Both the position numbers and the translations under genes were made by a program. From the NCBI GenBank assembly GCA_016182905.1, contig JACPFR010000005.1, forward strand, positions 76,185 through 140,184: a stretch of DNA of 64,000 nt, in the 5' to 3' direction. Source of the DNA: Elusimicrobiota bacterium (lineage in GTDB: Bacteria; Elusimicrobiota; Elusimicrobia; UBA1565; UBA9628). Of this stretch, positions 1 through 58,105 are shown piece by piece. Under the pieces are notes generated by a model, which did not search any database, had not been told where the DNA came from, and saw only the letters and a program-made list of their open reading frames with translations. Each line of letters begins with the position of its first letter. Position 1 is the first letter of the stretch.

Positions 1-61
1 GAGGTGTGAATCCTGACAGAGGAAATACGGTCATTCCCATCGAAGGTCGGAGACGAAATCC

Positions 62-775: not shown

Positions 776-848
776 GCACATTGATTGTTTTGTTCGGGAT
801 ACTTCGAAAAGGCCACTCTCAGCAAGGAGCAATGTCAATCGAGGTCCT

Positions 849-1700: not shown

Positions 1701-1725
1701 TGTCCAATGATCCCGAGGACAAGAG

Positions 1726-2274: not shown

Positions 2275-3080
2275 GGCAGAAGGCCATAGCCGGCATGCTC
2301 TTTTCGCTTCCCGCGCTCGCGGCAGCCACCGCTTATGGCGGCGAGAATCCTGCGGTTCCGTTACAGCGAGATGACATCGTGAAGATGTCTCCGGCGAAGG
2401 CTGCCGCGATCTTGCGAAGCGACGCCAGGAATTATGACGGCTGGTGTGCCGTCGTCACGTATGCGCCTACTGCTCTATTTGCCGACGAGACCGTCAAATC
2501 TTCGTTGATCGGCCTTGTCGAGCGAATCAATAAGATCAATGAAGACTGGCGCCATGCCTATGATCGGGGCGAGAACCCTGCCGGTCTCAAGTCCCAAATT
2601 GGGGAAGGCTTCGGCGAGTGCCAAGGAGAACTCGCCACTCGTGCGGTCCCAGTCCTCAAAGGAGATAAGCGGGCGCTACGGGCCTTGGTCGAAGGACATC
2701 GAGATGCGGCTTTGGATTTCGGCGATGAGGCTGGTCGATTGGCCATTCAGGAGCGGGCCGATCCGAGCTCGTCTCTGGCACTGCGCGCCGAAATGATCGA
2801 TTTGCTCGGTCGACTGAAAGAAAAGGGAACGTTATCACCATCACTCCAGGAGCAAGCAGAGAAGACAGTGTTCGATGCCTCATCCGATGAGAACGACGGA
2901 ATCAAAAGAATCGCTATCAGGAACCTGCGGCACTTCTCGAAAGCTAAAGCACTAAAGAGGTTGAAGGAAATATCCGCGACGGACTCGCGGTCTTTCATCC
3001 GGAAGAGCGACCAGGAGCAAGTGTTCCCTATTCGAGAGGAAGCAAAAAAGGAACTTGATCGCCTGTTAAAAACGAAATGA
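2271..3080 (+). CDS. secreted hypothetical protein with HEAT-like repeat
   Basis: Signal peptide (MLFSLPALAAATAYGGENPAVP). HEAT-like segment (IKRIAIRNLRHFSKAKALKRLKEI). Overlaps the stop of the upstream gene, consistent with an operon. Confidence 0.5.
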   Translation: MRQKAIAGMLFSLPALAAATAYGGENPAVPLQRDDIVKMSPAKAAAILRSDARNYDGWCAVVTYAPTALFADETVKSSLIGLVERINKINEDWRHAYDRGENPAGLKSQIGEGFGECQGELATRAVPVLKGDKRALRALVEGHRDAALDFGDEAGRLAIQERADPSSSLALRAEMIDLLGRLKEKGTLSPSLQEQAEKTVFDASSDENDGIKRIAIRNLRHFSKAKALKRLKEISATDSRSFIRKSDQEQVFPIREEAKKELDRLLKTK

Positions 3081-3083
3081 ACC

Positions 3084-3821
3084 ATGAACACAATGAATAG
3101 GACTGTGCTCGGCGGCATGTTCATCGCGCTTCCTGCGCTTATGGGAGCCGCCGCTTTCGGCCAAGAGTTGGTCTTGCCGGAAAGACTACGGCAGTTGCAG
3201 GTCGACAAGGGCTCCTTCACTTTGGTCGACGTGCGCGACGTCGGTCAGTACCAGATCCGCCACATCGACGGCGCTATCAATATCCCGAAGGACGCGATTG
3301 GATCGGCTGACCTGCCCAAAGGCGGACGGATCATCCTCTACTGCGGCGACGCGCATTGCCCGCTCAGCCACGCGGCGGCCAAGACTTTGATGTCGAACGG
3401 CGTCGAGAACATCGGAGTGCTCTACGGCGGAATCGCCCAGTGGGAGAAGAGCGGCTATCCCGTGCTGCCTGTGCCCATCGAGAAGGAGAAGGTGAAGGGC
3501 GACATCGACGCGGGGGAACTGCAGGACCGTATTCACAAGACCGGTGCGGTCGTCGTCGTGGACGTGCGCTCTGCCGAGGATTTCACCGCCGGGCATCTTC
3601 CAGGAGCCCGCAGCATTCCGCTGGAAAACCTCTCGAAGTCGGTGAAGTCACTCCGAAAGCATTCGGATATCGTGGTCTACGATCGCGTCTCGCAGCGCAG
3701 CAAGACCGCAGTGCGGCAGCTGGCCGAGGCGGGCGTCGGCGCGCGTGCGCTGGCGGGCGGAGTCGGGGCGTGGGCGATGAAGGGCTTTCCTTTAGAAGCG
3801 GGGTCTCAGAAAGGCTCATAA
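3084..3821 (+). CDS. rhodanese-like domain protein (two rhodanese folds), secreted
   Basis: Signal peptide. First domain has the typical rhodanese pattern (LVDVRDVGQYQIRHIDGAINIP ... ILYCGDAHCP). A second rhodanese-like half (VVVDVRSAEDFTAGHLPGARSIP ... VVYDRVSQRS) lacks the cysteine. Confidence 0.7.
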   Translation: MNTMNRTVLGGMFIALPALMGAAAFGQELVLPERLRQLQVDKGSFTLVDVRDVGQYQIRHIDGAINIPKDAIGSADLPKGGRIILYCGDAHCPLSHAAAKTLMSNGVENIGVLYGGIAQWEKSGYPVLPVPIEKEKVKGDIDAGELQDRIHKTGAVVVVDVRSAEDFTAGHLPGARSIPLENLSKSVKSLRKHSDIVVYDRVSQRSKTAVRQLAEAGVGARALAGGVGAWAMKGFPLEAGSQKGS

Positions 3822-3822
3822 C

Positions 3823-12111: not shown

Positions 12112-12998
12112 GAGCACTCAAGGTCGCCGGACTGATCGTCCTCTCCGCCCAGGTCTCCTGGGCCGCGGAGACCGCGTCGTTTCTCGACATCGGCGTGGGC
12201 GGACGCGCGCTGGGCATGGGCGGCGCCTACACGGCCCTGGCCGACGACGCGAACGCCCTCTACTGGAACCCCGCGGGCTTGGCGCGCCTGGAGAAGCGCG
12301 AGGCGACGGCGAGCCATGCCGAGCTGTTCGAGAGCACGCGGCTCGACTTCCTGGCGTACGCGAATCCCACGACGCAGGGCGTCCTCTCGGCGGGGCTCAC
12401 CTACCTGAGCCAGCCTAAGATTCCGGGGCGCGACAGCCTTGGACGCCCGACGGGAGGATATGACGCCTCGGACGCCGCCGTGAGCCTCGGCTTCGCCCGC
12501 AAGCTCGACATGGCCGATTTCGGCGTCTCCGTGAAGTACGTCCGCAGCCACATCGGCTCCGTCGAGGCGCAGACCGTCGCCGTGGACGTGGGCGCCAAAC
12601 GAGCGCTGGGAAGCCTGGTGTTCGGCGCAGCGTTTCGCAACCTGGGGCCTGGGCTCAAGTACGACAACGAGCGCAACGACCTGCCCCTCAGGCTCGCCGT
12701 CGGCGCCGCCTACAAGTTCGCAGGAGGGCACGCGGCCGCAGTCGAGGCCGTCAACGGCCCGCGCGGCGCGGGAACGGACGGCTCCTTCGGCGGGGAGTTC
12801 CAGGCGCTCAAGAACGTCTATCTTCGTGCCGGCTACACCACCCAAAGCGCCGTCACCGGCGGCGCAGGCTTCGACGCGGCGCGCGGGTTGACCTTCGGCC
12901 TCGGCATGCGCAACGAGAAGTGGAGCATGGACTACGCGATCCTCCCGACCGGCGAGCTCGGGCGATCTCACCGGTTCAGCCTTGGTGCTCGATTTTAG
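12108..12998 (+). CDS. outer-membrane beta-barrel of the FadL/PorV-like group (possible T9SS PorV/PorQ or PorP/SprF-type partner)
   Basis: Signal peptide (LIVLSAQVSWAAETA). N-terminal motif GGRALGMGGAYTALADDANALYWNPAGLA matches the FadL/PorV-type start. Abundant alternating aromatic-rich strands and a C-terminal F. Start overlaps the stop of the CTD-bearing giant gene. Confidence 0.6.
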   Translation: MRALKVAGLIVLSAQVSWAAETASFLDIGVGGRALGMGGAYTALADDANALYWNPAGLARLEKREATASHAELFESTRLDFLAYANPTTQGVLSAGLTYLSQPKIPGRDSLGRPTGGYDASDAAVSLGFARKLDMADFGVSVKYVRSHIGSVEAQTVAVDVGAKRALGSLVFGAAFRNLGPGLKYDNERNDLPLRLAVGAAYKFAGGHAAAVEAVNGPRGAGTDGSFGGEFQALKNVYLRAGYTTQSAVTGGAGFDAARGLTFGLGMRNEKWSMDYAILPTGELGRSHRFSLGARF

Positions 12999-13789: not shown

Positions 13790-14025
13790 GTTCAGGAGAG
13801 CATGGCGTGTCCGGCGCTTCTTGTCAAGATGGCCGGACTTGGTGAGTTTGCGAACTTTGACGCCCTCGGGCCGCCCTCTCCGACGAGGATTAGGGCTAGA
13901 CCTGAGCGGTTGTCAGGCGGAGGCCTTTCACCTCACAGAAATAGCGACTGTGATCGTCGGGAAGTGAGAATTCGCATAGCCATCCTGAATGTCATTGAGT
14001 AACCCATAAAGCGGGCGTATTATTT

Positions 14026-14101
14026 AAAAATAGGCCTTTAAACATTATAGACTTGAAAAAATAGGCCTCTTCTGTTATATTAGAGTTAGATTATAGGCCT
14101 C
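14026..14101 (+). repeat. three direct copies of A-rich ATAGGCCT motif at about 30-bp spacing upstream of fic
   Basis: aaaaATAGGCCTtta / aaaaaATAGGCCTctt / attATAGGCCTcc within an AT-rich low-GC intergenic stretch directly 5' of the Fic gene. Confidence 0.6.
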
Positions 14102-14132
14102 CAAGTCATTCTCAGGCTCATAAGAGTGAAAA

Positions 14133-15605
14133 ATGACGCCCTTATCAGAACTCATCTTTGGGACATCAGAAAACAAGGAGGCCAAGCGCCTGCGCCGCTT
14201 ATTGCGTGCAGGACAGGCTAGAAAGATTGCGCCACGCCTATACACAACCAATCTTACGGACCTGCCCGAGAAGATAGTCCGAGATAACTACCACGAAATC
14301 CTTGGGAGGCTTTTTCCCAAAGCAGTCATCAGCCATCGGACCGCGCTGGAAGGAAAGCCTACAGCAAGCTGGGAAGTATTTCTTACCAGCTCTTATCCCC
14401 GAAAAGTCGTATTGCCGGGCCTTACAGTCAGAATCATGAAGGGTCCGCCCGCTGGAATTGCGGACAAGCCCTTCATGGTGGGGGACCTCTTCCTCGCATC
14501 GGAACCACGAGCATTCCTCGAGAACCTCCAGCCAAGTCGCCGAGGAGCGACCACGTCAAAGGCCATTTCCCGTCAAGAGCTAGAAGAACGTCTTGAAAGA
14601 ACCCTTCGCCTAAGGGGCGAGAAAGCCCTAAACAATCTACGTGATGAAGCTCGGCGCGTCGCTAACGAATCCGGCTTCCTCGAAGAGTTTAAGTCGCTGG
14701 ATGCGATCATCGGGGCAATGCTCAAGACAAAACCGGCTTCTGGACTGCAATCAGCATTGGCCAAGGCACGGGCAGCAGGAGAGGCGTTCGATCCGGAGCG
14801 GCTAAGAGTATTCGAGGCTCTTTTCTCTGCCCTAAAACAAACTCCGCTACGAGAGACTGCTGAGGCGCATACAAATTCAGAAGCTTTGCGAGTGCTCGCC
14901 TTCTTCGAGTCCTACTTTTCAAATTATATTGAAGGGACAAAATTCGAAGTTGATCAGGCGCATGAGATCGTATTTGAAGGGAGGATCCCAATCACGCGTC
15001 CAAAGGATGCGCATGATGTCTTAGGAACTTATCGAGTTGTCTCGAACATCGCAGGGCTGAGTGAACGGCCTCAAGCCATGGATTCGTTTTGGACGCTGCT
15101 CTCAACTCGCCATGAAGCTATGCTCGGCGCCAGGCCAGAAATTCGGCCAGGCGAGATGAAGATGGACGTCAACCGCGCCGGGGACACGGTATTTGTCGTG
15201 CCAGATCTCGTAAGAGGGACGCTGGCAAGAGGCCTTGAGTTTTATAAGGTCCTGGATTCTCCATCGGCTCGGGCGGCGTTCATGATGTTTCTGGTTTCCG
15301 AGGTTCACCCTTTTAACGATGGCAACGGCCGTATTGCTCGCGTGATGATGAATGCCGAGCTGGTCGCGGCAGGTTTACGACGGATCATCATCCCAACAGT
15401 ATTTCGCGACGATTACCTCGGCGCGCTTCGAGCTCTTAGCCGGAGAGGCGATCCTGGCGCTTATCTGCGCATGTTTGATTACGCCCAGTTATTTTCAGCA
15501 AGCATCGATTTCTCCGACTTTCCAACTGCGCGGCGGGCATTGGAAGCGGCGAACGCTTTCAAAGACCCCGGAGAAGCGAAGCTCGTCATCCGAAAGAGCG
15601 AGTAA
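14133..15605 (+). CDS. fic: Fic/Doc family protein (class II Fic with cis inhibitory motif), adenylyltransferase-type toxin-like
   Basis: Canonical Fic motif HPFNDGNGRIARVMMN. Upstream inhibitory-helix motif S-x-x-x-E-G (FSNYIEGT). Gene GC (about 50%) is far below the flanking sequence (about 70%). Confidence 0.85.
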   Translation: MTPLSELIFGTSENKEAKRLRRLLRAGQARKIAPRLYTTNLTDLPEKIVRDNYHEILGRLFPKAVISHRTALEGKPTASWEVFLTSSYPRKVVLPGLTVRIMKGPPAGIADKPFMVGDLFLASEPRAFLENLQPSRRGATTSKAISRQELEERLERTLRLRGEKALNNLRDEARRVANESGFLEEFKSLDAIIGAMLKTKPASGLQSALAKARAAGEAFDPERLRVFEALFSALKQTPLRETAEAHTNSEALRVLAFFESYFSNYIEGTKFEVDQAHEIVFEGRIPITRPKDAHDVLGTYRVVSNIAGLSERPQAMDSFWTLLSTRHEAMLGARPEIRPGEMKMDVNRAGDTVFVVPDLVRGTLARGLEFYKVLDSPSARAAFMMFLVSEVHPFNDGNGRIARVMMNAELVAAGLRRIIIPTVFRDDYLGALRALSRRGDPGAYLRMFDYAQLFSASIDFSDFPTARRALEAANAFKDPGEAKLVIRKSE

Positions 15606-15721
15606 GAGGAGTTTCCGTCTCTGGGACTAGTGCCTGAACTGCCGCTGATCCAGAGCCGGAGGTTGTCGCCGATCCGGCACCCGCACCAAAATCCTTGTCG
15701 AGATGCGTGTCGAGATGACGC

Positions 15722-15768
15722 CAAAAACCAACAAAAAACCGCAAACTCGAACAAACTCAAGTTTGCGG
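15722..15768 (-). terminator. rho-independent terminator (minus strand)
   Basis: Minus-strand sequence CCGCAAACTtgagtttgttcgAGTTTGCGG followed by TTTTTTGTTGGTTTTT. Confidence 0.7.
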
Positions 15769-15895
15769 TAATTGTCGATTTCTCGACGAGAACTCGATTC
15801 TGACAGCGGAACTGCTTCCTGCGCCGGGGGCACCCGTCAGTTTTACAGACCGGTGCTTTTGACCGCTCAGCCACCCTACCATTGCGGCTGCGACA
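15722..15895 (-). ncRNA. candidate small RNA with tRNA-like 5' domain (or decayed tRNA remnant) bounded by a promoter-like element and an intrinsic terminator
   Basis: Minus strand GGTAGGGTGGCTGAGCGGTCAAAAGCACCGGTCTGTAAAACTGACGGGTGCCCCCGG resembles the acceptor, D-arm and anticodon arm of class-II tRNAs (D-loop GAGCGGTCAAA, anticodon loop CTGTAAA, hairpin variable arm). No canonical T-arm or 3' acceptor strand follows. TTGCGG-N17-CATAAT lies upstream and the terminator lies downstream. Confidence 0.3.
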
Positions 15896-15928
15896 GGGCA
15901 TTATGGCATTTCAGGGTCGCAGCCGCAA
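15882..15928. repeat. perfect 13-bp inverted repeat (hairpin) immediately downstream of htpX
   Basis: TTGCGGCTGCGAC - 21 nt - GTCGCAGCCGCAA. Confidence 0.8.
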
Positions 15929-15948
15929 CGGTATCAATAAACGGCGGT

Positions 15949-16815
15949 CTAGGCCCTGCGCAGGGCCGCGATGCGGTCCGCCAGCGGCGGATGCGTCGAG
16001 ATCAGCGCCAGGAAGCCGCCGCGCCCGCCGGCGATCTTGAGCGTCGCCAGCGCCTCCTGCGTGTCGTGGGGCTCGAAGCGGCGCTGCAGGGCCTGCAGGG
16101 CGGCGATCATCTTCTCGCGGCCGCCGAGCTTGGCGCTGCCGGCGTCGGCGCGGAACTCCCGGTGGCGGGAGAACCAGGCGACGACGACCATGCCCAGTAT
16201 TCCGAGAGCGATCTCGAGCGCGAACACCGTCAGGCGGTCCATCCCCCGGTGGTCGCGGTCGGAGCCGCGGCTCAGCGCGAAGGCGATGACCCGGGCCAGG
16301 AACATGACGAAGGCGTTGACCACGCCCTGGATCAAGGTCATCGTGACCATGTCGCCGTTGGCGACGTGGGCGATCTCGTGGGCGAGCACGCCCTCGAGCT
16401 CGTCCTGGCTCATGCTCTCGAGCAGGCCGGTCGAGACGGCGACCAGCGCGCGGGACTTCGTCGGGCCCGTGGCGAAGGCGTTGGGCTCGGGGCTGTCGTA
16501 GATCCCGACCTCGGGCATCGCCGGCAGGCCCGCGCGGCGCGCGAGGCCGTGGACGGTCCCGACCAGCGGGTGGCCGGAGCGCGCGTCGAGGACCTTGACT
16601 CCCATGCTCCACTTGGCCATCACGCGCGACAGGGACAGCGAGACGAAGGCGCCGCCCATGCCCCACGCGAGGCAGAACGCGGCGAGCGAGCCGTAGTCGA
16701 TGCCCCTCGCGCTCAGGTACGGTCCCACGCCCAGCACCGACAGCAGGACGGAGATGGTGAGGACCACCAGCAGGTTCACGGCCATGAATAGGAACACGCG
16801 TTTCATCCAGGTCAT
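15949..16815 (-). CDS. htpX: protease HtpX (M48 family zinc metalloprotease)
   Basis: HEIAHV zinc motif, TM segments, and the overall HtpX pattern (GLPAMPEVGIYDSPEPNAFATG; LAHEIAHVANGDM). Confidence 0.9.
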   Translation of the reverse strand: MTWMKRVFLFMAVNLLVVLTISVLLSVLGVGPYLSARGIDYGSLAAFCLAWGMGGAFVSLSLSRVMAKWSMGVKVLDARSGHPLVGTVHGLARRAGLPAMPEVGIYDSPEPNAFATGPTKSRALVAVSTGLLESMSQDELEGVLAHEIAHVANGDMVTMTLIQGVVNAFVMFLARVIAFALSRGSDRDHRGMDRLTVFALEIALGILGMVVVAWFSRHREFRADAGSAKLGGREKMIAALQALQRRFEPHDTQEALATLKIAGGRGGFLALISTHPPLADRIAALRRA

Positions 16816-40116: not shown

Positions 40117-41292
40117 TCAAGACCCGCGTCCCGCGGCGGACGGCTCCGCCGCGGGGGCGAGCGCCGGCTGCAGCTCCAGCGTGATCCAGTAGAGCAGGAC
40201 CCAGCTCACGCGCCTGCGGTACTCCGCGTCGTAGAGCGGGCTGTAGGCGTCCTCGCCGTAGAAGAACATCCACGAGTCGCAGGCGTAGTACAGGACGCGA
40301 TGGACGACGTGAGGATCGAGCAGGAGGAGCAGGGCCGCGTAGCCGAGCTTGCGCGGGGTCAGGCGGAAGGACACCGCCTGGAAGTGCCGGCGGTCGCGCA
40401 CGCCGGTGAGGCGGTAATCCTCGGTGCGGTCCTCGACGCTGCGGACGCCGAACCACCGGCGGCACTGCGCCAGCGGCCCCTCGTCGACGAAGGGGTAATA
40501 GCCCGAGTACATCTTGTCCATGAAGTAGGCGTGCCAATAGAACTTCCAGTCCCGCGGCTTGCGGGTCTGGTGCAGGCAGGACAGGAAGACGCGCCGGGCC
40601 GGCGAGGCCTCATTGAGGAGGCGGGCGGCGAACAGGCACATGTCGGAGTAGATCCTGTTCTGCTTCTCGAGGTCGTTGCGGTCCTCCATGCTGACGTAAT
40701 GCTCGACGGTGTCCATGAAGGTGACGGCGTCGAAGCGGCCGTACAGGCGCCGCTGGAGAGCCGGGTCCGTGAGGATATCCTTCCAGTTCGTCGCGTGCAC
40801 CTCGAGGCCGTATTCGCGGCGGGCGTACTCGGCCTGCTCCGGCGTCATGTTGATGCCCACGGCCTCGCAGCCGAGCTCGTCGCGGCAGTAGCGCAGCCAG
40901 TCGCCGTAGCCGCAGCCCACGTCGCACACCGCCATCCCCCTTCTCAGGCCGAGCTTGCGCGCCATGTGCTCGTATTTCGCGCGCTGGGAAAGCCCGCCGT
41001 CGACGACGAGGTTGAAGCCGAGGTCCCGGCCGCTGCCGGCGGTCCCGTCGTACATGTTGTGGATCCACTGATAGCTGCGCCGCACGCGCAGCTGGGAGTC
41101 GAACAGCAGGGAGCGGCCGAAGACCCAGAAGAGGATATCGTCCAAGGCGAGGGCCGCCGGCGCGAACAGCGCGCCCCAAGGCCCGAGCGTCCAGGCCAGG
41201 CCGCCCGCGGCGGCGAGCAGCCCCCACCAAACGACGGTGTTCCGGTCGACGGCGACGAGCATCGCGGCGGAGCGCGTGTTGTCCTTGGTCAT
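40117..41292 (-). CDS. class I SAM-dependent methyltransferase (cyclopropane-fatty-acyl-phospholipid synthase-like)
   Basis: VCDVGCGYGDW SAM-binding motif and CFA-synthase-like context (SYQWIHNMYDG ...). Start set at MTKDNT; the upstream 124 codons of the ORF are an artefact. Confidence 0.65.
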   Translation of the reverse strand: MTKDNTRSAAMLVAVDRNTVVWWGLLAAAGGLAWTLGPWGALFAPAALALDDILFWVFGRSLLFDSQLRVRRSYQWIHNMYDGTAGSGRDLGFNLVVDGGLSQRAKYEHMARKLGLRRGMAVCDVGCGYGDWLRYCRDELGCEAVGINMTPEQAEYARREYGLEVHATNWKDILTDPALQRRLYGRFDAVTFMDTVEHYVSMEDRNDLEKQNRIYSDMCLFAARLLNEASPARRVFLSCLHQTRKPRDWKFYWHAYFMDKMYSGYYPFVDEGPLAQCRRWFGVRSVEDRTEDYRLTGVRDRRHFQAVSFRLTPRKLGYAALLLLLDPHVVHRVLYYACDSWMFFYGEDAYSPLYDAEYRRRVSWVLLYWITLELQPALAPAAEPSAAGRGS

Positions 41293-41404
41293 GGAGGGAC
41301 GCGCCGCAACGCTGCGGCCAAGGCGGGCGCGCCGTGGCCGGATTGATGCGATCGTCAAAAAAAGGAGACCGGACGAAGACGGCGGACGAGGGAGGGCGGC
41401 GACC

Positions 41405-42094
41405 ATGGCGAAGACGACGACGAGACCGGCACCCGTGAGCATCCCCGCGCGGGGCGTGGAGGTGAAGGGGGACCTGGTCGTGCCGGCGGACGCGACGGGC
41501 GTCGTGCTGTTCGCGCACGGCAGCGGGAGCAGCCGTCTGAGCCCGCGCAACCGCTTCGTGGCGGAGGCGCTGAACCGGCGCGGCCTGGCCACCTTGCTCG
41601 CCGACCTGCTGACCGCGTCCGAGGAGGAGGCCGACGCCGCGACGGCCGAGCTGCGCTTCGACATCCCGTTCCTGGCCGGGCGCCTCGACGCGGTCTCGAG
41701 CTGGCTGCGGGACCGCCCGGAGACCCGGGGGCTCCCTTTAGGCTACTTCGGCGCCAGCACCGGGGCGGCGGCCGCGCTCCTGGCCGCGGCGGCCCGCCCC
41801 TCGGAGGTCTTCGCCGTGGTGTCGCGAGGCGGCCGGCCCGACCTGGCCGTCGAGGCGCTCGCGCTGGTCAAGGCCCCGACCTTGCTGCTCGTCGGCGGCG
41901 AGGACCGCGAGGTCCTCGCGATGAACGAGGTCGCCGCGAGCCTGATGACGGCGGAGCGGCGCCTCGAGGTCGTGCCGGGCGCGACGCATCTCTTCGAGGA
42001 GCGCGGGGCGCTGGAGTCGGTCGCGCGCCTGGCCGGCGACTGGTTCCTCGCGCATCTCCCGGGGGTCGTATCGTTGCGTCCGAGAAGGGCATGA
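41405..42094 (+). CDS. alpha/beta hydrolase (dienelactone hydrolase-like)
   Basis: VLFAHGSGSS ... GYFGASTGAAAAL (nucleophile elbow G-x-S-x-G) ... C-terminal His. Confidence 0.65.
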   Translation: MAKTTTRPAPVSIPARGVEVKGDLVVPADATGVVLFAHGSGSSRLSPRNRFVAEALNRRGLATLLADLLTASEEEADAATAELRFDIPFLAGRLDAVSSWLRDRPETRGLPLGYFGASTGAAAALLAAAARPSEVFAVVSRGGRPDLAVEALALVKAPTLLLVGGEDREVLAMNEVAASLMTAERRLEVVPGATHLFEERGALESVARLAGDWFLAHLPGVVSLRPRRA

Positions 42095-42987: not shown

Positions 42988-43052
42988 CCGGAGGCCGTAG
43001 CGTTGCAACATTCATAATATTCCGCTTCAGGTGGACCAAGGAGATCAGACTA

Positions 43053-43375
43053 TGGCGACGATGATGAGACGCAAGCACCAAAAGACGGCGATGCTGGCCG
43101 TCGAGTATCCGCGGCAGAGCGAGAAGATCACCTCCTCCGATTACACCGTCCGCGTGTTCGCGCCGGAGTCGGCGAAGAAGGTCGGCATCTCGATCGATCA
43201 GGGCCCCTGGAAGTCCTGCCGGTCCGCCGTCGGCTATTGGTGGTTCGACTGGACGGGCTACGAGAACGGCGAGCATCAGATCGTCGTCTCCATGGAGACC
43301 GCGGAAGGCACGCGGATCATCTCGGAGCCGCACGAGTTCTTCGTCGAGCGCGCGCCGAGCCTCATCGCGCGCTAG
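43053..43375 (+). CDS. small Ig-like (E-set-like) protein, paralog family member 1 (GYWWFDW motif)
   Basis: YTVRVFAPESAKKVGISIDQGPWKSCRSAVGYWWFDWTGYENGEHQIVV. AAGGAG RBS 8 nt upstream of the ATG at 43053. Confidence 0.6.
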
Positions 43376-45753: not shown

Positions 45754-45834
45754 GCGTCACCTCGCCTCAATTGTGACGAACGACATTACCTCCTAAAATC
45801 AGCAAGGGCAGTCCGATGCAAAGGGAGGTTGTGA

Positions 45835-47364
45835 ATGCTGGTCCAGGATCTTCTGCGGAGGAGCGCCGCGCGGCTGCCGGACAAGACCGCGCTGGTCTGC
45901 GGCGAACGGCGCTTCACCTACGAGCGGCTCGACGCCATGTCGAACCGCCTGGCCAACGCCCTCCTCGCGCGAGGCGTGCGAAGGGGAGACCGGGTCGCGC
46001 TGTACCTCGACAACTCCCTCGAGGCCGTCGTCGCGATCTTCGCCGTCCTCAAGGCCGGGGCCGCGTTCGCCTCGATCGGCCGCGGGACCAAGCCGGACAA
46101 GCTCCTCGCCATCCTGAACGACTGCGCCGCGTCGGCGATCGTCCTGGACGTCGCCGCCCTGGGCCAGGGGCTCCTCGAGCGCCTGGCCGAGGAGGCGTCC
46201 TCGCTGCGCTGCGCCGTCGCCTGCGGGGGCGCCCCGCGTCCGGTGCATCCTCTGCTGGCCGATTTCGCCGAGATCCAGGCCACGGCTCCGGAGTCGGCGC
46301 CGGAGCCCGCGAGCATCGACCTCGACCTGGCCTGCCTCATCTACACGTCGGGGACCACGGGCGAGGCGAAAGGCGTCATGTGCGACCACGCCGGGATGAT
46401 CTTCGTCGTCGAGGCGGTCGCGCGCTACCTTAAGAACTCGGAGCGGGACGTGGTCCTGAGCGTCCTGCCCCTGGCGTTCAGCTACGGCCTCTACCAGCTC
46501 CTCGCCATGGTCTGCTGCGGCGGGACTTTGGTGCTCGAGGAGTCGTTCGCGTTCCCCGACCTCGTGATGCGCAAGGCGGCGGCGGAACGGGTGACCGGCT
46601 TCGCCGCGGTGCCCTCGATCTACGCCCGGCTGCTGAGCATGGACCTGGGCGGCATCGACCTCTCGTCCCTGCGCTACCTCACCAACGCCGCGGCGGGGCT
46701 CCCGGTCGAGCAGGTCAAGCGGGTCCGGCTCCTCTTCCCCCGGACGGAGCTCTACCTGATGCACGGCCTCACCGAGACGGCCCGGACGATGTACCTGCCG
46801 CCGGAGCAGGTCGACGCGCGGCCGGGCTCGTCCGGACGGGCGCTCGAGGGCACCGAGCTCTGGCTCGAGGACGAGGACGGCGGACGGCTCGGCCCGGGAG
46901 AGGTGGGCGAGCTGATCGTGCGCGGCCGGCACGTGATGCGCGGCTACTGGGGCGCGCCGGAGGAGACCGCGCGGCGGTTCCGCGCCGGGCCGCTCCCGGG
47001 CGAGCGGGTGTGCTGCAGCGGCGACCTGTTCCGCATGGACGAAGCGGGCTATTTCTACTTCGTCAGCCGCAAGGACGACATCATCAAGAGCCTCGGCCGG
47101 AAGGTGGCGCCGCGCGAGACCGAGGACGTGCTGTACCGCCTTCCCGGCGTCCTGGAGGCGGCGGTCGTCGGCGTCCCGCACCCCGAGCTGGGCCAGGCGG
47201 TGAAGGCGTTCATCGTCGCGCCGGGCGCCGGCCTGCTCGAGGCCGCGGTGATCGCCCATTGCCGCAAGCACCTCGAGGACTTCATGGTCCCGCGCACGGT
47301 GGTGTTCGTCGCCGAGCTACCCAAGACGCCCTCGGGCAAGCTCCGGCGCAAGGACCTCGTCTGA
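45835..47364 (+). CDS. AMP-dependent synthetase/ligase (fatty acyl-AMP or acyl-ACP/CoA ligase)
   Basis: AMP-binding signature IYTSGTTGEAKGV, TE hinge motif, and C-terminal lysine (PKTPSGKLRRKDL). Confidence 0.85.
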   Translation: MLVQDLLRRSAARLPDKTALVCGERRFTYERLDAMSNRLANALLARGVRRGDRVALYLDNSLEAVVAIFAVLKAGAAFASIGRGTKPDKLLAILNDCAASAIVLDVAALGQGLLERLAEEASSLRCAVACGGAPRPVHPLLADFAEIQATAPESAPEPASIDLDLACLIYTSGTTGEAKGVMCDHAGMIFVVEAVARYLKNSERDVVLSVLPLAFSYGLYQLLAMVCCGGTLVLEESFAFPDLVMRKAAAERVTGFAAVPSIYARLLSMDLGGIDLSSLRYLTNAAAGLPVEQVKRVRLLFPRTELYLMHGLTETARTMYLPPEQVDARPGSSGRALEGTELWLEDEDGGRLGPGEVGELIVRGRHVMRGYWGAPEETARRFRAGPLPGERVCCSGDLFRMDEAGYFYFVSRKDDIIKSLGRKVAPRETEDVLYRLPGVLEAAVVGVPHPELGQAVKAFIVAPGAGLLEAAVIAHCRKHLEDFMVPRTVVFVAELPKTPSGKLRRKDLV

Positions 47365-49343
47365 TGTGCGGCATCGCGGGCGTCTTCGACCGGTCGCGGC
47401 GGGAGCCGGCCGCCGAGGAGGGGCTGCGGCGGATGCTGGGCGCGCTGCGCCATCGCGGGCCCGACGAGTTCGGCGTCCTGATCGACCGCGAGGCGGGGCT
47501 CGGCAGCGCGCGCTTGAGCATCATCGACCTCGCCGGCGGCGGGCAGCCGATCGCCAACGAGGACGGCACCCTCTGGATCGTCTTCAACGGCGAGGTCTTC
47601 AACTACGTCGAGCTGCGCGCGGAGCTCGAAGCGCAGGGCCACCGTTTCCGGACGCGGACGGACACCGAGGTCGTGCTCCATCTGTACGAGCGGCACGGGC
47701 CGCGCTGCCTGGAGCGCCTGAACGGCCAGTTCGCCATCGCGATCTGGGACGCGAGACGGCGCCGCCTCTTCCTCGGCCGCGACCGCCTCGGCGTGCGGCC
47801 GTTGTTCTACGCCGAGACGCCCGGCGGGACCCTCCTGTTCGCCTCCGAGGTCAAATCCATCCTGAGCGACCCCCGCGCGCGGGCGGAGATCGACCCGGAG
47901 GTCGTCCGGCAGGTCTTCCTGTTCTGGGCCCCGACCGCGCCGCACACGGCGTTCAAGGGGGTCCTCGAGCTGCCTCCCGGGCATTTCCTGCTGGCGGACG
48001 AGCGCGGTCTTCGCGTCGAACGCTACTGGGAGAACGCCTTCCCCGAGGACGGGGGCGCCGCCGCGGCGGGGCGCCCGTTCGAGGAGGTCGTCGAGGAGTT
48101 CCGGGCGCTGCTGACCGACGCCTGCCGCATACGGCTGCGCGCCGACGTCCCGGTCGGCGCCTACCTCAGCGGCGGCCTCGATTCCTCGGCCATCGCCGCG
48201 ATCGTGCGGCGGAGCACGACGAACCGTCTCGTGACCTTCTCCATCGCGTTCGACGACGCGCGCTTCGACGAGAGCTCGTATCAGCGGGAGATGGCGGCGC
48301 ATCTGGGCACCGAGCATCACGTCGTCCAGGCGACGTACGAGGACATCGGCCGGGTCTTCCCCGAGGTGGTGTGGCACGCCGAGTCTCCGATGATGCGCAC
48401 GGCCCCGGCCCCGATGTTCCTCCTCTCCCGGCTCGTGCGCGACCGGGGCTTCAAGGTGGTGCTGACCGGAGAGGGCTCGGACGAGTTCCTGGCCGGGTAC
48501 GACATCTTCAAGGAGGCGAAGGTGCGCCGCTTCTGGGCGCGCGAGCCCCGCGGGAAGGGGCGGCCGATGCTGCTCAAGCGGCTCTATCCCGACATCGGAG
48601 GGCTCGGGGAGAGCCATCACGAGACGCTCGCCGCGTTCTTCGGGGAGGGGCTCGGCGACACGGAGTCCCCGTGGTACTCCCACGCGGTGCGCTGGCGCAA
48701 CAACCTGCGCACCTGGCGCTTCCTCGCCGGCGAGGCCGCGGCGCAGCCGCACTTCGCCCGGCTCGCCGCCGCCCTGCCCCTTTCGTTCGGGCGCTGGGGG
48801 CCGCTGGCGCGGGCGCAGCATCTGGAGATCAGCATCTTCCTGTCGCACTACCTGCTCTCCTCCCAGGGCGACCGGATGGGGATGGCGAACTCCATCGAGG
48901 GACGCTTCCCGTTCCTCGACGTCCGGCTGACCGAGTTCTGCAACCGCCTCCCGCCGCGCCTCAAGATGCGCGTCCTGCGCGAGAAGCACCTGCTCAAGGC
49001 GGCCGCGGGCCCCTGGCTGCCCGCCCGGATCAGCGGCCGCCCCAAGCGGCCGTACCGGGCGCCGATCCACCGCAGCTTCTTCCACGCGGGCGCCCCGGAC
49101 TACGTCCGCGAGCTCCTCGGCGAGAGGGCGCTGGCGGGCTCCGGCCTGTTCCGGCCCGCGGCGGTGGCGCGGCTGGTGGGAAAGATCGAGGCCGGGGCGC
49201 CGATCGGGGAGACGGACGACATGGCGGTGGCCGGGATCCTCTCGACGCAGCTGCTGCATCATCAGTTCGTGAAGAGCGCCCGGCGGACGTCCCCGCTGGG
49301 CGCGACGGACCCGGTGAAGGTCTGCCGGCTGAACGCCAACTAA
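47364..49343 (+). CDS. asparagine synthetase family amidotransferase (glutamine-hydrolysing, AsnB-like)
   Basis: N-terminal Ntn Cys (MCGIAGVF). PP-loop (AYLSGGLDSSAIAA). 659 aa. ATG overlaps the ligase stop. Confidence 0.85.
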   Translation: MCGIAGVFDRSRREPAAEEGLRRMLGALRHRGPDEFGVLIDREAGLGSARLSIIDLAGGGQPIANEDGTLWIVFNGEVFNYVELRAELEAQGHRFRTRTDTEVVLHLYERHGPRCLERLNGQFAIAIWDARRRRLFLGRDRLGVRPLFYAETPGGTLLFASEVKSILSDPRARAEIDPEVVRQVFLFWAPTAPHTAFKGVLELPPGHFLLADERGLRVERYWENAFPEDGGAAAAGRPFEEVVEEFRALLTDACRIRLRADVPVGAYLSGGLDSSAIAAIVRRSTTNRLVTFSIAFDDARFDESSYQREMAAHLGTEHHVVQATYEDIGRVFPEVVWHAESPMMRTAPAPMFLLSRLVRDRGFKVVLTGEGSDEFLAGYDIFKEAKVRRFWAREPRGKGRPMLLKRLYPDIGGLGESHHETLAAFFGEGLGDTESPWYSHAVRWRNNLRTWRFLAGEAAAQPHFARLAAALPLSFGRWGPLARAQHLEISIFLSHYLLSSQGDRMGMANSIEGRFPFLDVRLTEFCNRLPPRLKMRVLREKHLLKAAAGPWLPARISGRPKRPYRAPIHRSFFHAGAPDYVRELLGERALAGSGLFRPAAVARLVGKIEAGAPIGETDDMAVAGILSTQLLHHQFVKSARRTSPLGATDPVKVCRLNAN

Positions 49344-49359
49344 CCTGGAGGACACTATC

Positions 49360-50355
49360 ATGACGCGCTTCAACCGGAACCAAGTGGACATCGACCCGGC
49401 CGCGGAGACGGCCCGCATCGTGGATTTCCTGCGGCGGAACGTCCGCCGGGAGATGAAGCGCAGGGGGGCCGTGGTGGGGATCAGCGGCGGCATCGACTCG
49501 GCCGTCGTGCTGGCCCTGTCCGTGCGCGCCTTCGGCGCGGGCAACGTCACCGCGGTGATGATGCCCGATCGCGATTCCGACTCCCTCAGCGAGAAGCTCG
49601 GGCGCGAGCTGGCCGCCGCCTACGGCGTCGAGCCGCTCCTGGAGGACATCACCAAGGCCCTGGACGGCTTCGACTGCTACCGGCGCCGGGACGACGCGAT
49701 CCGCCGGGTCTGCCCGGGATACGACGCCGACGCGGGCTGGAAGGCCAAGATCGTCCTCCCTCAGGACCTCCTCGAGTCCGGCTCGTTCAACGTCTACTCC
49801 GTCACCGTCATCGCCCCGGACGGCCGGGAGGAGACCCTCCCGCTGGGGGCGCGCGAGATGCTGGAGATAGTCGCCGCGTCGAACCTCAAGCAGCGCTCGC
49901 GCATGAGCATGCTGTATTTCCACGCCGAGGCGCGGCAGTTCGCCGTGATCGGCACGTCGAACAAGAACGAGCACGCCCAGGGCTTCTTCGTCAAGCACGG
50001 GGACGGGGGGGTGGACATCCAGGCGATCGCGCATCTGTTCAAGACCCAGGTCTATCAGCTCGCGCGGCACCTCGGCGTGCCGGAGAGCATCCAGCGGCGC
50101 ACGCCCACGACCGACACCTACAGCGCTCCCTGCGACCAGGCCGAGTTCTTCTTCCGGCTGCCTTTCTCGACCTTGGACCCGATCTGGTTCGCGCGGGAGA
50201 ACGACGTCCCCGTGCCCGAGGTCGCGAGCGGCATGGGCCTGCCCGAGGTGCAGGTCCAGCGGGTCTTCGACGACATCGCGGGCAAGCAGCGAGCCACCGA
50301 GTACCTGCGGCTCAGCCCGCCGATCCTCGAGCCGGCCAAGACGGCCTACGCGTGA
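49360..50355 (+). CDS. NAD+ synthetase (NadE) family PP-loop amidoligase
   Basis: GISGGIDSAV PP-loop and the NadE C-terminal pattern (FFVKHGDGGVDIQAI ... TPTTDTY). Confidence 0.75.
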   Translation: MTRFNRNQVDIDPAAETARIVDFLRRNVRREMKRRGAVVGISGGIDSAVVLALSVRAFGAGNVTAVMMPDRDSDSLSEKLGRELAAAYGVEPLLEDITKALDGFDCYRRRDDAIRRVCPGYDADAGWKAKIVLPQDLLESGSFNVYSVTVIAPDGREETLPLGAREMLEIVAASNLKQRSRMSMLYFHAEARQFAVIGTSNKNEHAQGFFVKHGDGGVDIQAIAHLFKTQVYQLARHLGVPESIQRRTPTTDTYSAPCDQAEFFFRLPFSTLDPIWFARENDVPVPEVASGMGLPEVQVQRVFDDIAGKQRATEYLRLSPPILEPAKTAYA

Positions 50356-50370
50356 ACGGAGGAGACATCA

Positions 50371-50667
50371 ATGGATAAGAACGCGAACGATCAGCACATC
50401 GAGACGGCGATACGGGGCTTCATCGCGACCGATCTCCTGTACAGCGAGGAGGGCTTCACCTATTCCGACGACGTCTCCTTGATCCGCGAGCGGATCATCG
50501 ATTCTCTCGGGGTCGTGGAGCTGGCGGCCTTCCTGTCCCGGCGCTTCGGCGTGCGCGTCGAGCAGTCGGAGGTCCGGCCGGAGAACTTCGACACGGTGAC
50601 GCGGCTGGCGGCCTTCGTGCGCCTCAAGCAGGCCGCGGCGCGCCCCGAAACGCTCGCGGCGGCCTGA
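50371..50667 (+). CDS. acyl carrier protein-like
   Basis: 98 aa with a phosphopantetheine attachment motif (IIDSLGVVELAAFLS). Confidence 0.7.
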   Translation: MDKNANDQHIETAIRGFIATDLLYSEEGFTYSDDVSLIRERIIDSLGVVELAAFLSRRFGVRVEQSEVRPENFDTVTRLAAFVRLKQAAARPETLAAA

Positions 50668-50680
50668 GAGGAGAGCCTTC

Positions 50681-51592
50681 ATGGGAAAGAACCTGCTCAG
50701 CCCGGTCCGGGCCTCGCACCTGAGCCGGGCGCTGGGGCTCGAGCTCCTCGGCGAGGACCGCGAGATCCGGGAGCTGTGCGGCCTGGAGGCTCTCTCGGGC
50801 CACGGGCTGTCCTTCTCGCTGGACCGCAGCCCCGGGGCGGCCAGCTCCGGGACGGTCTTCGCCTCCGAGCCGTCGGCGTCGAGCTCCCTGACCGTCCTGC
50901 GCGCGGACAAGCCGAGGCTGGAGTTCATCCGCGCCCAGCACCTGCTCCAGGAGTCCCCGGGCTTCGAGGAGGACTCGGCGCCGCCCGACATCCATCCCAC
51001 CGCGCGGATCGGCCTCCACGCGGTCATCGAGAGCGGGGTGCGCATCGGGGAGGGGACCCGCGTCGGCAGCCTGGCGGTGATCAAGAGCGGCACGCGCATC
51101 GGCCGCCGCTGCGACATCAAGTCGGGGGCCGTGATCGGGGAGTCCGGGTTCGGCTTCGAGCGCGACGGCGCCAACCGGGCGCTGCGCATGATCCACATCG
51201 GGCGGGTGGTCATCGGCGACCACGTGGAGATCGGGAGCCTGACGACCGTCTGCCGCGGGGCCCTGGGGGACACGGTCATCGAGGATCACGTCAAGATCGA
51301 CGACCACTGCCACATCTCCCACAATTGCCGCATCGGCGAGGGCGCGATGATCACGGCCTGCGTAGCGGTCAGCGGCTCGGTCGCGATCGGCCGCGACGCC
51401 TGGCTCGCTCCGGGCTGCGCGCTCGTGCAGAAGTTATCCGTCGGCGCGGGCGCCTTCATCGGCATCGGCGCGGTGGTGACGCGCAGCGTCCCGGCCCGGG
51501 CCCGCGTCTTCGGCAACCCCGCGAAGCCCATTCCCGTGCTGGGCGCGCCCGCCGAGGGCCGCCGGCACGGGTCGCGGCGGAAGGACCGCTGA
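50681..51592 (+). CDS. LpxD-like left-handed beta-helix (hexapeptide repeat) N-acyltransferase
   Basis: Successive [LIV]-G-x-x-x-x hexapeptide repeats (IESGVRIGEGTRVGSLAVIKSGTRIGRRCDIKSGAVIGESGFGFER ... VIGDHVEIGSLTTV ... IEDHVKIDDHCHISHNCRIGEGAMI) with a His typical of LpxD catalysis. Confidence 0.75.
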   Translation: MGKNLLSPVRASHLSRALGLELLGEDREIRELCGLEALSGHGLSFSLDRSPGAASSGTVFASEPSASSSLTVLRADKPRLEFIRAQHLLQESPGFEEDSAPPDIHPTARIGLHAVIESGVRIGEGTRVGSLAVIKSGTRIGRRCDIKSGAVIGESGFGFERDGANRALRMIHIGRVVIGDHVEIGSLTTVCRGALGDTVIEDHVKIDDHCHISHNCRIGEGAMITACVAVSGSVAIGRDAWLAPGCALVQKLSVGAGAFIGIGAVVTRSVPARARVFGNPAKPIPVLGAPAEGRRHGSRRKDR

Positions 51593-51618
51593 CGGCACCG
51601 GCTCGTCCGCCGCCGCCG

Positions 51619-52113
51619 TCAGCGGTGGCGGCGGTCGCGCGCGGTGCCGCGCGGCGGCTTCCTCCGATCCTTATCCCGATCCCGCTCCTGCTCCCCCGCG
51701 CCGCCGGCGGCGACCGTCTCCGGGGGCCGGGAGGTCCCCGTCACGGAGCGCAGGACGGAGAGCAGCTCGTCGTCGTCGGCCGGCTTGAGCAGCACCTTCG
51801 AGACGCCTTCCTCGTCCGCCCGGCGATGAAGGTCCTCGGTGGACCACGCGGTCATGACCACGATCGGCGTGCTTCGGGTCTCCGGGTCGTCGCGCAGCCG
51901 GCGGCACATCTCCCAGCCGTCCACGCGCGGCATCGCGATGTCGAGCAGGATGACCTCGGGCTTGAAGGCGGAGGCCTTCCTCAGCCCCTCGTCGCCGTCA
52001 TGGGCGACGGCAACCGTGAACCCCCAGCCCGACGATAGGCGTATCGCGAGCGCCTCGGTCAGGTCGCTCTCGTCGTCGACGATGAGCACTCGTCTACTTT
52101 TCAGATGCGTCAT
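51619..52113 (-). CDS. response regulator receiver protein (CheY-like, stand-alone)
   Basis: RVLIVDDE ... LLDIAMPRVDGWEM ... VVMTA ... K pattern. Confidence 0.8.
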   Translation of the reverse strand: MTHLKSRRVLIVDDESDLTEALAIRLSSGWGFTVAVAHDGDEGLRKASAFKPEVILLDIAMPRVDGWEMCRRLRDDPETRSTPIVVMTAWSTEDLHRRADEEGVSKVLLKPADDDELLSVLRSVTGTSRPPETVAAGGAGEQERDRDKDRRKPPRGTARDRRHR

Positions 52114-57733: not shown

Positions 57734-58021
57734 CTAGCCCCGGACCGTGAACAGCCGCGGCTGGGTGACGAGCATCGAGCCGTCGGCTTCGATCACGCGC
57801 GACACCGCGATGTGGTCGCCCTCGTCCTGCGGGGTCCAATCGAACCACCAGTAGCCGGCGTCCATGCGGCAGGGCTTCCATTCCCCGTCGTCGATGGAGA
57901 GGCGGACCTCCTTCGCGTCGGACGGGGCCGTGACGCGGAAGCTGTAGTCCTGGCCGGGAGCGAGCGTCTCTCCCGCGCGCGGATAATCGACGCCGACGGT
58001 CTTCAGCGGAGCTTGGATCAT
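57734..58021 (-). CDS. small Ig-like protein, paralog family member 2 (GYWWFDW motif)
   Basis: YSFRVTAPSDAKEVRLSIDDGEWKPCRMDAGYWWFDWTPQDEGDHIAV. AGGAGA RBS before MIQAPL. Confidence 0.6.
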   Translation of the reverse strand: MIQAPLKTVGVDYPRAGETLAPGQDYSFRVTAPSDAKEVRLSIDDGEWKPCRMDAGYWWFDWTPQDEGDHIAVSRVIEADGSMLVTQPRLFTVRG

Positions 58022-58105
58022 GGGGTGTCTCCTGTGCGAGGTTGATTTGCGAGCGGTCATTCTAAGGATGCCGGCTGCCGGCCGGGCGGTCTCCGCCCTC
58101 CTGCC

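Follow-up and report, generated by a model that had tools for sequence, protein, structure and literature searches.

The DNA analyzed here, referred to below as the window, is a stretch of 64,000 nucleotides (nt) of contig JACPFR010000005.1, assigned to an Elusimicrobiota bacterium. It harbors a run of five genes, named G1 to G5 in this text, which encode an adenylate-forming ligase, an AsnB-type amidotransferase, a NadE-like amidoligase, a small carrier protein and a left-handed β-helix (LbH) acyltransferase that resembles LpxD (Table 1). In this DNA of about 70% G+C, filtering of open reading frames (ORFs) by third-position G+C content leaves an unambiguous series of genes on the + strand, with values of 0.87–0.97 for G1 to G5, all of them co-directional. 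The intergenic gaps are −1, 16, 15 and 13 nt, the ATG of G2 overlaps the TGA stop codon of G1 (TGATG), and ribosome-binding sites of the GGAGG type lie ahead of G1, G3, G4 and G5. The five genes are a translationally coupled operon. The tight, co-directional spacing described in the initial annotation of this DNA is borne out, operon structure included, as are the identities it gave to the five genes, for which Pfam and NCBIfam domain models were used here. A GTG-initiated ORF listed at 47366-49363 lies in a different frame and is spurious. In the public annotation, the proteins matching G1, G3 and G5 are named AMP-binding protein (MBI2384731), NAD(+) synthase (MBI2384733) and LpxD (MBI2384735), respectively.

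Table 1. Genes and candidate regulatory sites of the operon, with positions counted from the first nucleotide of the window
Feature	Positions	Strand	Details
G1, adenylate-forming ligase, predicted carrier-protein loader	45835-47364	+	509 aa; AMP-binding and AMP-binding_C domains
G2, AsnB-type glutamine-dependent amidotransferase	47364-49343	+	659 aa; starts MCGIAG; GATase_7 and Asn_synthase domains
G3, NadE-family PP-loop ATP-dependent amidoligase, module-specific subfamily	49360-50355	+	331 aa
G4, dedicated carrier protein	50371-50667	+	98 aa; predicted phosphopantetheine attachment at Ser45 in IDSLG
G5, LpxD-like LbH N-acyltransferase, lineage-specific accessory gene	50681-51592	+	303 aa
Promoter-like site, TTGTGA-17-TAAAAT, sigma-70-like	45771-45799	+	between ppsA and G1, which are 81 nt apart; consensus match only
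GC-rich hairpin	51585-51626		separates G5 from the convergent response-regulator gene; 18-nt arms with 89% complementarity, loop of 6 nt

Four of these genes recur together in distant bacteria. A scan of one genome per species gave 80 loci among the matches listed, and these were scored with tblastn; a partner gene was counted when it lay within 8 kb of the NadE-like gene and on the same strand, and the loci were split according to whether the NadE-like protein was at least 40% identical to G3. Above this limit, the ligase was found at 45, the AsnB-like gene at 49 and the carrier gene at 34 of the 61 loci, many of the missing partners corresponding to contig ends or frameshifts, while below it the counts fell to 1, 0 and 0 of 19, in both cases among the matches listed. 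Clustering of the ligase, AsnB-like, NadE-like and carrier genes is far beyond chance, and the conserved unit consists of these four, with G5 outside it. Therefore, of the five-gene unit described in the initial annotation, four members are co-conserved and the LpxD-like gene is variable. That annotation had also stated what would refute it, namely a NadE homolog that is the only, housekeeping NAD synthetase of the genome and is not co-conserved with its neighbors; the homolog is instead co-conserved with the other genes and, in some lineages, fused to them.

The linkage of ligase, ACP (acyl carrier protein) and AsnB-like genes spans more than 10 phyla. Hosts of the module include Acidobacteriota, Bacteroidota, Chloroflexota, Ignavibacteria, Cyanobacteria, Verrucomicrobiota, Planctomycetota, Elusimicrobia-labeled metagenome-assembled genomes (MAGs), rhizobia and methanogens. 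The closest relatives of G3 among the matches listed, 70–94% identical, come from a metagenome protein search and belong to MAGs labeled Elusimicrobia, Binatia, Verrucomicrobia and Dormibacteraeota; on all of their contigs the order ligase-AsnB-NadE-carrier is unchanged. At least six gene orders occur overall: LIG-AsnB-NadE-ACP (LIG being the ligase), ACP-LIG-AsnB-NadE, ACP-AsnB-NadE-LIG, ACP-AsnB-LIG-NadE, AsnB-ACP-LIG-NadE and NadE-ACP-LIG-AsnB. This permutation between clades argues for selection for co-expression rather than inherited synteny. In module homologs the PP-loops, the catalytic Cys1 of G2 and the Asp-Ser motif of the carrier are conserved.

One of these loci has been handled in the laboratory. 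A tblastn search of plasmids placed the NadE-like gene on Sinorhizobium megaplasmids, and the pSymB-type replicon of S. meliloti GR4 carries AsnB, ACP, ligase and NadE genes in a row. The S. medicae copy is annotated asnB / acyl carrier protein / AMP-binding protein / nadE, and rhizobial copies in general sit on megaplasmids and accessory plasmids. The S. meliloti proteins are 50% (SMb20650, G1), 51% (G2), 48% (G3) and 36% (SMb20651, G4) identical to those of the window, where all four families are likewise encoded in a single operon; judged by this homology, the window module appears to be the same as pSymB asnB-smb20651-smb20650-nadE1. That operon was reportedly described by Ramos-Vega et al. 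in 2009 (Microbiology 155:257). The initial annotation had not recognized the NadE plus LpxD-like combination as a described pathway; the LpxD-like variant is new, and the ligase/AsnB/ACP/NadE part is already on record. According to PMC7232532, smb20650 and the ACP gene smb20651 share a transcript, and expression of SMb20650 in Escherichia coli making holo-SMb20651 yields acylated SMb20651. The proposal that the ligase loads the ACP thus has experimental support in an ortholog 50% identical to G1. In 2017 the function of SMb20651 was still said to need "further investigation" (PMC5686131). The S. meliloti module has had no assigned function since 2009, and it is one of the more widespread uncharacterized carrier-protein modules. 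Literature searches located nothing that joins NAD synthetase, asparagine synthetase and ACP with polysaccharide or O-antigen, and nothing on the module-type subfamily of NadE-like proteins.

The best NCBIfam match of G1 is TIGR03098, at 438.5 bits and below the cut-off of 592.35, and its best matches in the PDB are MatB and the adenylation (A) domains of nonribosomal peptide synthetases (NRPSs). At the A4 position that binds the α-amino group, where amino-acid-activating domains have FDxS, G1 carries AFSYG and no Asp. An α-amino acid is therefore an unlikely substrate, and activation of the DltA/NRPS type was rejected. It is also unlikely that G1 is a MatB, since it has MHGLTE in place of the MatB motif ERYGMTE, which is quoted in PMC7232532.

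G2 has the features of class II (Ntn) amidotransferases of the AsnB type: a Cys stands directly after the initiator Met, and the protein has both a GATase domain and an Asn_synthase domain, the latter carrying SGGLDS. The MCG start pointed out in the initial annotation is present, and it is kept, with its catalytic Cys1, in 43 of 47 G2 homologs of the module. G2 exceeds the cut-off of TIGR01536 and also matches TIGR03108, the WbpS family, over its full length with 423.3 bits (cut-off 816.9), being nearer to this family than to E. coli-type AsnB (338 bits). Its best PDB match is 7YLZ, a hydroxyamidotransferase that forms a hydroxamate in the tailoring of a polyketide. G4 matches the PP-binding model weakly, with further weak matches to AmcB, the OlsHI ACP and DltC. 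The Asp-Ser attachment pair is kept by all 39 module carrier proteins compared, and helix II of G4 is of the peptidyl-carrier/DltC kind and not AcpP-like. By analogy with the S. meliloti pair, the only one for which this has been demonstrated, G4 would be phosphopantetheinylated and acylated by G1.

G3 carries the PP-loop SGGIDS and scores 436 bits against NF002048 (the "NAD(+) synthase" subfamily), above the cut-off of 313. Its AlphaFold2 (AF2) model, with a predicted TM-score (pTM) of 0.85, has the NadE fold, and Foldseek gives target-normalized TM values of about 0.8 to NadE of Helicobacter pylori and to the nicotinamide mononucleotide (NMN) synthetase of Francisella. By PP-loop, fold and family-model score it is a NadE protein; the canonical P2 loop without a large insertion is not found in it. 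NadE proteins of the module type have an insertion of about 55 residues, modeled as a helix and three strands added to the NadE fold, and a P2 loop that reads TPTTDTYSAP..QEEFFF, against PSAGLW.GQTDE in unlinked NadEs. The insertion and the altered loop are common to the copies from the window, S. meliloti (locus L087), Acidobacteriota, Bacteroidota, Planctomycetota and Methanoregula, and both are absent from unlinked NadEs.

A search for fusions among cluster representatives at 50% identity gave further links between the NadE-like protein and its partners. P0263 (849 aa), found in three independent assemblies, is a complete fusion of ligase and NadE-like protein, and its locus (L097, 8001-10550) reads AsnB-ACP-[LIG::NadE]-GNAT, the last being Eis-like; P0405 is a partial copy of such a fusion. 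In P0269 the NadE domain is fused to a phosphopantetheinyl transferase (PPTase). P0270 (locus L098, 8001-9533) combines NadE, AMP-binding_C and PP-binding domains, and its gene stands after that of an A-T didomain protein and before genes for a GDSL hydrolase, two alpha/beta hydrolases and a PPTase. As its NadE domain is fused to the C-terminal subdomain of an A domain and to a carrier, it takes the place of the A-core domain.

It could be argued that G3 is simply the NAD synthetase of the cell and G2 its asparagine synthetase, and that both merely lie beside a ligase and an ACP gene. G2 passes the cut-off of TIGR01536 and G3 that of NF002048, and G3 keeps the NadE fold and catalytic motifs. 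This explanation is nevertheless highly improbable, given a linkage that extends over more than 10 phyla with permuted gene order and is absent for distant NadEs, which behave as ordinary nadE genes. The fusions of NadE to ligase, carrier protein and PPTase, the insertion with its altered P2 loop, the location of rhizobial copies on megaplasmids and accessory plasmids, and the embedding of other copies in exopolysaccharide (EPS), polyketide synthase (PKS) and NRPS loci speak against it as well. In addition, the NAD synthetase gene of the S. meliloti operon is named nadE1, which would imply a second nadE in that organism. Judged by this evidence, G3 does not behave like a stray housekeeping gene, and it is probably a dedicated component of a carrier-protein pathway. 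That the NadE family is able to change its substrate is known from the Francisella NMN synthetase (PMC3376133). A more far-reaching proposal, made here tentatively, is that the NadE-like protein is no NAD synthetase and could be the founding member of a class of PP-loop enzymes that act on, or load, carrier-tethered acyl groups. Together with the AsnB-like enzyme it might then give an undescribed nitrogen-rich acyl unit (a diamide, or one carried further to an amidine or nitrile), which would be grafted onto surface glycans or used as a PKS/NRPS starter in more than 10 phyla and some methanogens.

The LpxD architecture that the initial annotation recognized in G5 is confirmed, together with the catalytic His-Asn motif. 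The best PDB sequence match is LpxD of Pseudomonas aeruginosa, through the LbH domain, with ISHN of G5 aligned on IAHN, and H211, H214 and N215 are invariant in the G5 family. The AF2 model has a mean confidence (pLDDT) of 77; its top Foldseek matches are full-length LpxD proteins, and its N-domain also matches the UDP-binding N-domain of MurF. According to this moderate-confidence model, G5 has both a predicted uridine-binding N-domain and an LbH domain with the catalytic His. No helix is predicted beyond residue 91, residues 277-303 have pLDDT below 50, and the C-terminal helical domain is missing. The scores against the LpxD models, 182.6 bits for NF002060 (cut-off 207) and 172.6 bits for TIGR01853 (cut-off 242.5), are both below cut-off, and the lipid A neighborhood (lpxA, fabZ, lpxB) is absent around G5 in the window. 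Presence of the gene also varies. Locus L092, whose NadE-like protein is 94% identical to G3, has it; in locus L090, a syntenic relative with an 82% identical NadE-like protein and the same downstream response-regulator and kinase genes, the carrier gene is followed directly by the response regulator. G5 is a variable, lineage-specific add-on to the module. It was rejected as the true LpxD of the genome, with scores below the cut-offs, no C-terminal domain and no counterpart in L090, and the public name of MBI2384735.1, UDP-3-O-(3-hydroxymyristoyl)glucosamine N-acyltransferase, probably goes too far, because the protein scores below both LpxD cut-offs and lacks that domain.

Homologs 54–57% identical to G5 lie in polysaccharide loci, among genes for a PIG-L deacetylase, DUF2332, WbqC, Wzy, glycosyltransferases, UDP-sugar dehydrogenase and AsnB-like proteins. 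By combining a deacetylase and an N-acyltransferase, these loci mirror both LpxC/LpxD and VimE/VimA. As a separate observation, the same metagenome contains a 64% identical G5 paralog (L095, 439-4042) beside genes for a PPTase, a class II aminoacyl-tRNA synthetase-like protein, an 89-aa putative carrier and an AurF-like N-oxygenase, which looks like a second carrier-protein pathway with a member of the LpxD-like family.

The resemblance to LpxD raises the question of a membrane-lipid pathway, in which G1 would load a long-chain fatty acid on G4, G5 as an LpxD paralog would place it on a lipid A precursor or on an amino-acid head group, and G2 and G3 would amidate carboxylates of the head group. 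Its supporting points are that LpxD is the best match of G5 and its name in the NCBI annotation, that G4 weakly resembles the ornithine-lipid ACP of OlsHI, and that in E. coli the S. meliloti ACP becomes acylated by its ligase, reportedly with C12/C18 chains. Against these stand the absence of G5 from the syntenic locus L090, its scores below both LpxD cut-offs, the missing C-terminal domain for ACP docking and the lack of an lpxA/fabZ/lpxB context, as well as the polysaccharide loci of its homologs and the embedding of the module after Wzc in EPS loci of Bacteroidota. The helix II of G4 is not that of an AcpP-like protein, and FadD is not replaceable by SMb20650 for growth on oleate (PMC7232532). 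The OlsHI pathway proper was rejected, with 43.5 bits for G4 against a cut-off of 130 and no GH3-like OlsH gene near the operon. A lipid product is on this balance unlikely.

Genes surrounding the module at about 60 loci, which were clustered and annotated, indicate where its product may go. In Bacteroidota the module directly follows WbaP-Wza-Wzc at about 17 loci, and Wza, Wzc or WbaP occur at about 17–20 loci overall. In Verrucomicrobia-like and related contigs it is accompanied by genes for Wzx, UDP-sugar dehydrogenase, DegT, FdtA, GNAT and NeuD-like LbH proteins. Directly downstream stand MBOAT and partner proteins in eight loci and Acyl_transf_3 in three loci of Chloroflexota; other partners in this position are GNATs and small LbH transferases, a place taken in the window by the LpxD-like G5. 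In a locus of Bryobacteraceae (L008, 10981-13614) an NRPS protein with C-T-TE domains overlaps the NadE stop codon, and in one of Caldilineaceae (L021, 12511-18135) a PKS module with KS-AT-DH-KR-ACP domains begins 7 nt after the ligase. Such interchangeable acyl-transfer partners are the pattern expected if the output of the module is an acyl-S-carrier donor, and in the lineages of these last two loci the product may also serve as a starter unit for an assembly line. Inside the module of three Bacteroidota loci there is a gene for a methyltransferase of the HemK/PrmC family (L028, 14902-15834; L063, 2254-3153; L065, 12601-13503), two with NPPY and one with APPY. PrmC, the archetype of this family, methylates the carboxamide nitrogen of glutamine, and by analogy these genes are circumstantial evidence that the product carries a carboxamide.

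Translational coupling of the module to an NRPS in L008 and to a PKS in L021 is also what recommends another explanation, that of a diffusible small molecule: the module would supply a small natural product with an amidated starter or acyl unit, and the substrate acylated by G5 would be a small amine and not a sugar nucleotide. A precedent is OxyD, which makes the malonamyl starter unit of oxytetracycline. L098, which joins an A-T protein, the NadE fusion with an A subdomain and carrier, hydrolases and a PPTase, points the same way, as do the best PDB match of G2, a polyketide tailoring enzyme, and the closeness of G1 to NRPS A-domains. Most of the loci are, however, polysaccharide loci; the N-domain of G5 is predicted to be of the UDP-binding type, and in the window the operon is not flanked by genes for a PKS, an NRPS, an exporter or further tailoring enzymes, so such a product is considered quite improbable here. 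The context over the ~60 loci points to glycan decoration or a PKS/NRPS starter and not to a membrane lipid. The initial annotation had suggested an N-acylated, amidated lipid or small molecule; its lipid branch is disfavored by this context, and the loaded acid need not be a fatty acid.

In the model somewhat favored here, the carrier is the site where the module would assemble an acyl group bearing an amide, which the LpxD-like enzyme would pass to a UDP-amino sugar. G1 would adenylate a carboxylic acid and link it by a thioester bond to the phosphopantetheine arm of G4, a loading that experiments have demonstrated for the S. meliloti orthologs. This acid would not be an α-amino acid, and most likely it is a di- or polycarboxylic acid or one that otherwise has a free carboxylate. 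Two ATP-dependent steps may then convert free carboxylate into carboxamide, while the acid is tethered, just before loading, or on the acceptor; G2 would draw on glutamine through its Cys1 glutaminase, and G3 would use ammonia at its PP-loop. One of the two enzymes could act on the sugar acceptor, as WbpS does. G5 would finally take the finished acyl off G4 and attach it to the free amine of a UDP-amino sugar that goes into lipopolysaccharide (LPS) or exopolysaccharide. In other lineages the four-gene module would pass its product to a GNAT, a NeuD-like LbH protein, MBOAT, Acyl_transf_3, or an NRPS C-T-TE protein or PKS module. As a precedent, experiments connect the AsnB homologs WbpS, WbqG and PGN_1234 with the making of uronamides in surface glycans, and a pair of deacetylase and transferase (Wbp/Vim) exchanges the N-acetyl group of a sugar for another acyl group (PMC7468200).

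Several observations weigh against this model. No glycosyltransferase, flippase or sugar-nucleotide gene was found near the operon in the window, and rhizobial copies of the module also stand alone, with no adjoining sugar or polysaccharide genes. The structural case for G5 comes from a model of moderate confidence, and its TM-score to LpxD is low (0.27). SMb20651 was reportedly acylated in E. coli with ordinary fatty acids, C12/C18, which would leave no free carboxylate for amidation. Since most catalytic residues of NadE are retained in G3, which also scores above the cut-off of the "NAD(+) synthase" subfamily in NCBIfam, it may still, biochemically, amidate nicotinic acid adenine dinucleotide (NaAD). 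The AsnB-like gene is missing from some module loci, so that two amidations are not universal. At four loci (L052, L057, L062, L066), three of them without an AsnB-like gene, the NadE-like gene has beside it a gene (cluster c19) for a WbuX-like PP-loop "N-acetyl sugar amidotransferase", which may be an alternative second amidotransferase or perform an amidine-forming step; apart from this gene, the extra genes at the loci without AsnB (L042, L052, L062, L066) gave no consistent clue.

The surroundings of the operon in the window agree with the initial annotation, which placed it after ppsA and a gene with a GYWWFDW motif and before signaling genes. Upstream lie ppsA, the small ORF with that motif (43031-43375), a Usp gene, an alpha/beta hydrolase, a CMAS-like methyltransferase, a TetR and an OEP gene; a response regulator and PAS histidine kinases follow downstream and are encoded on the opposite strand. 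In the gap between ppsA and G1, one promoter-like site was found against 0.2 expected from shuffled sequences. The hairpin behind G5 is, from its sequence, a possible bidirectional terminator; it has no T-run, and the terminator scan did not call it. Rfam and tRNA scans of the window gave no matches.

A gene for a CMAS-like SAM-dependent methyltransferase lies upstream of the module both in the window (40117-41664, − strand, 515 aa) and in L090 (4659-5843, 394 aa), separated from it by ppsA, Usp and hydrolase genes in the former and by a PEBP-family gene in the latter. The ORF with the GYWWFDW motif is one of three small paralogs of about 110 aa (43031-43375, +; 57734-58060, −; ~60200, +), which share the motif '...CR...GYWWF(D/E)(W/R)...G.H...' and have as their only Pfam match a sub-threshold one to the Ig-like Big_7; the first overlaps the start of ppsA at its annotated length, so the true ppsA start is probably later. 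Farther away, positions 3823-12111 (+) encode a 2762-aa protein of surface type (fn3, Big_13, NHL repeats, ZU5), overlapped by a PorV/UPF0164-like outer-membrane protein gene (12108-12998, +), possibly a cargo/shuttle pair like those of the type IX secretion system. Two stretches of the window, 1-4000 and 14001-16000, have 53–58% G+C against about 70% elsewhere and contain no tRNA or Rfam match; they may be foreign or non-coding DNA.

Acyl units borne by a carrier protein and handed to glycans or assembly lines are known in principle, and the four-gene module as such is on record. What is new here is the breadth of the module across bacterial phyla and some methanogens, the evidence for a "NAD synthase" as a dedicated and sometimes fused component, and the variant with an LpxD-like gene. 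If its chemistry were solved, a new surface-glycan decoration, a new PKS/NRPS starter unit and a new substrate class of the NadE family could result. In thousands of genomes the names "NAD synthase" and "asparagine synthase" given to members of the module, and "LpxD" in the present case, are probably mis-annotations. The window version, with its LpxD-like transferase, is a compact five-gene system suited to heterologous reconstitution.

Among known systems, the set associated with exosortase A and PEP-CTERM proteins was already mentioned in the initial annotation as a resemblance. TIGR03098 and TIGR03108 are indeed the best specific matches of G1 and G2, and that set is likewise tied to exopolysaccharide loci. 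It has no NadE-like member, however, and the window contains no TIGR03099 decarboxylase, exosortase or PEP-CTERM gene. With these partners missing and both scores below their cut-offs, membership was rejected, and the window set is regarded as a sister set. WbpS, WbqG and PGN_1234 provide a precedent for AsnB-type amidation of a sugar carboxylate in surface glycans, and G5 homologs have genes for PIG-L deacetylase, UDP-sugar dehydrogenase and AsnB-like proteins in their neighborhood; the Wbp/Vim systems differ in having no carrier, ligase or NadE-like protein, and their transferase VimA is FemAB/GNAT-like and not LpxD-like.

In the Dlt system (the ligase DltA, the carrier DltC, the MBOAT protein DltB, and DltD) a stand-alone ligase loads a small carrier, as is proposed for G1 and G4; G4 resembles the DltC type, and MBOAT proteins accompany the module in eight loci. 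The differences are that the window has no MBOAT, that G1 has no Asp to bind an α-amino group, and that Dlt has no amidating enzymes, so the set of ligase, carrier, MBOAT and DltD-like partner typical of Dlt-like polymer acylation is incomplete in the window. In the tetronate pathway of Vibrio cholerae O1 (rfbK-L-M-N-O), an unusual acyl group is built on a carrier loaded by a ligase, and an LbH transferase attaches it to the nitrogen of an amino sugar; the AsnB homolog OxyD amidates a thioester-bound dicarboxylate, giving the malonamyl starter unit of oxytetracycline. Neither is known to include a NadE-type enzyme, and the chemistry of their acyl units differs from that of the module.

G3 has in common with NadE, the Francisella NMN synthetase included, its fold, PP-loop and carboxylate-adenylating catalytic residues, and its subfamily is set apart by the ~55-aa insertion, the altered loop, and linkage and fusion to ligase and carrier. 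G5 is like LpxD in its UDP-binding type of N-domain, in its LbH domain with the catalytic His in (I/S)HN, and in its donor, probably an acyl-carrier protein; it differs in being about 40 aa shorter, in lacking the C-terminal helical domain for ACP recognition, in its position outside a lipid A cluster, and in a presence that varies between close relatives. The S. meliloti operon has the order AsnB-ACP-LIG-NadE and no adjoining acyltransferase, whereas the window has LIG-AsnB-NadE-ACP and adds the LpxD-like gene.

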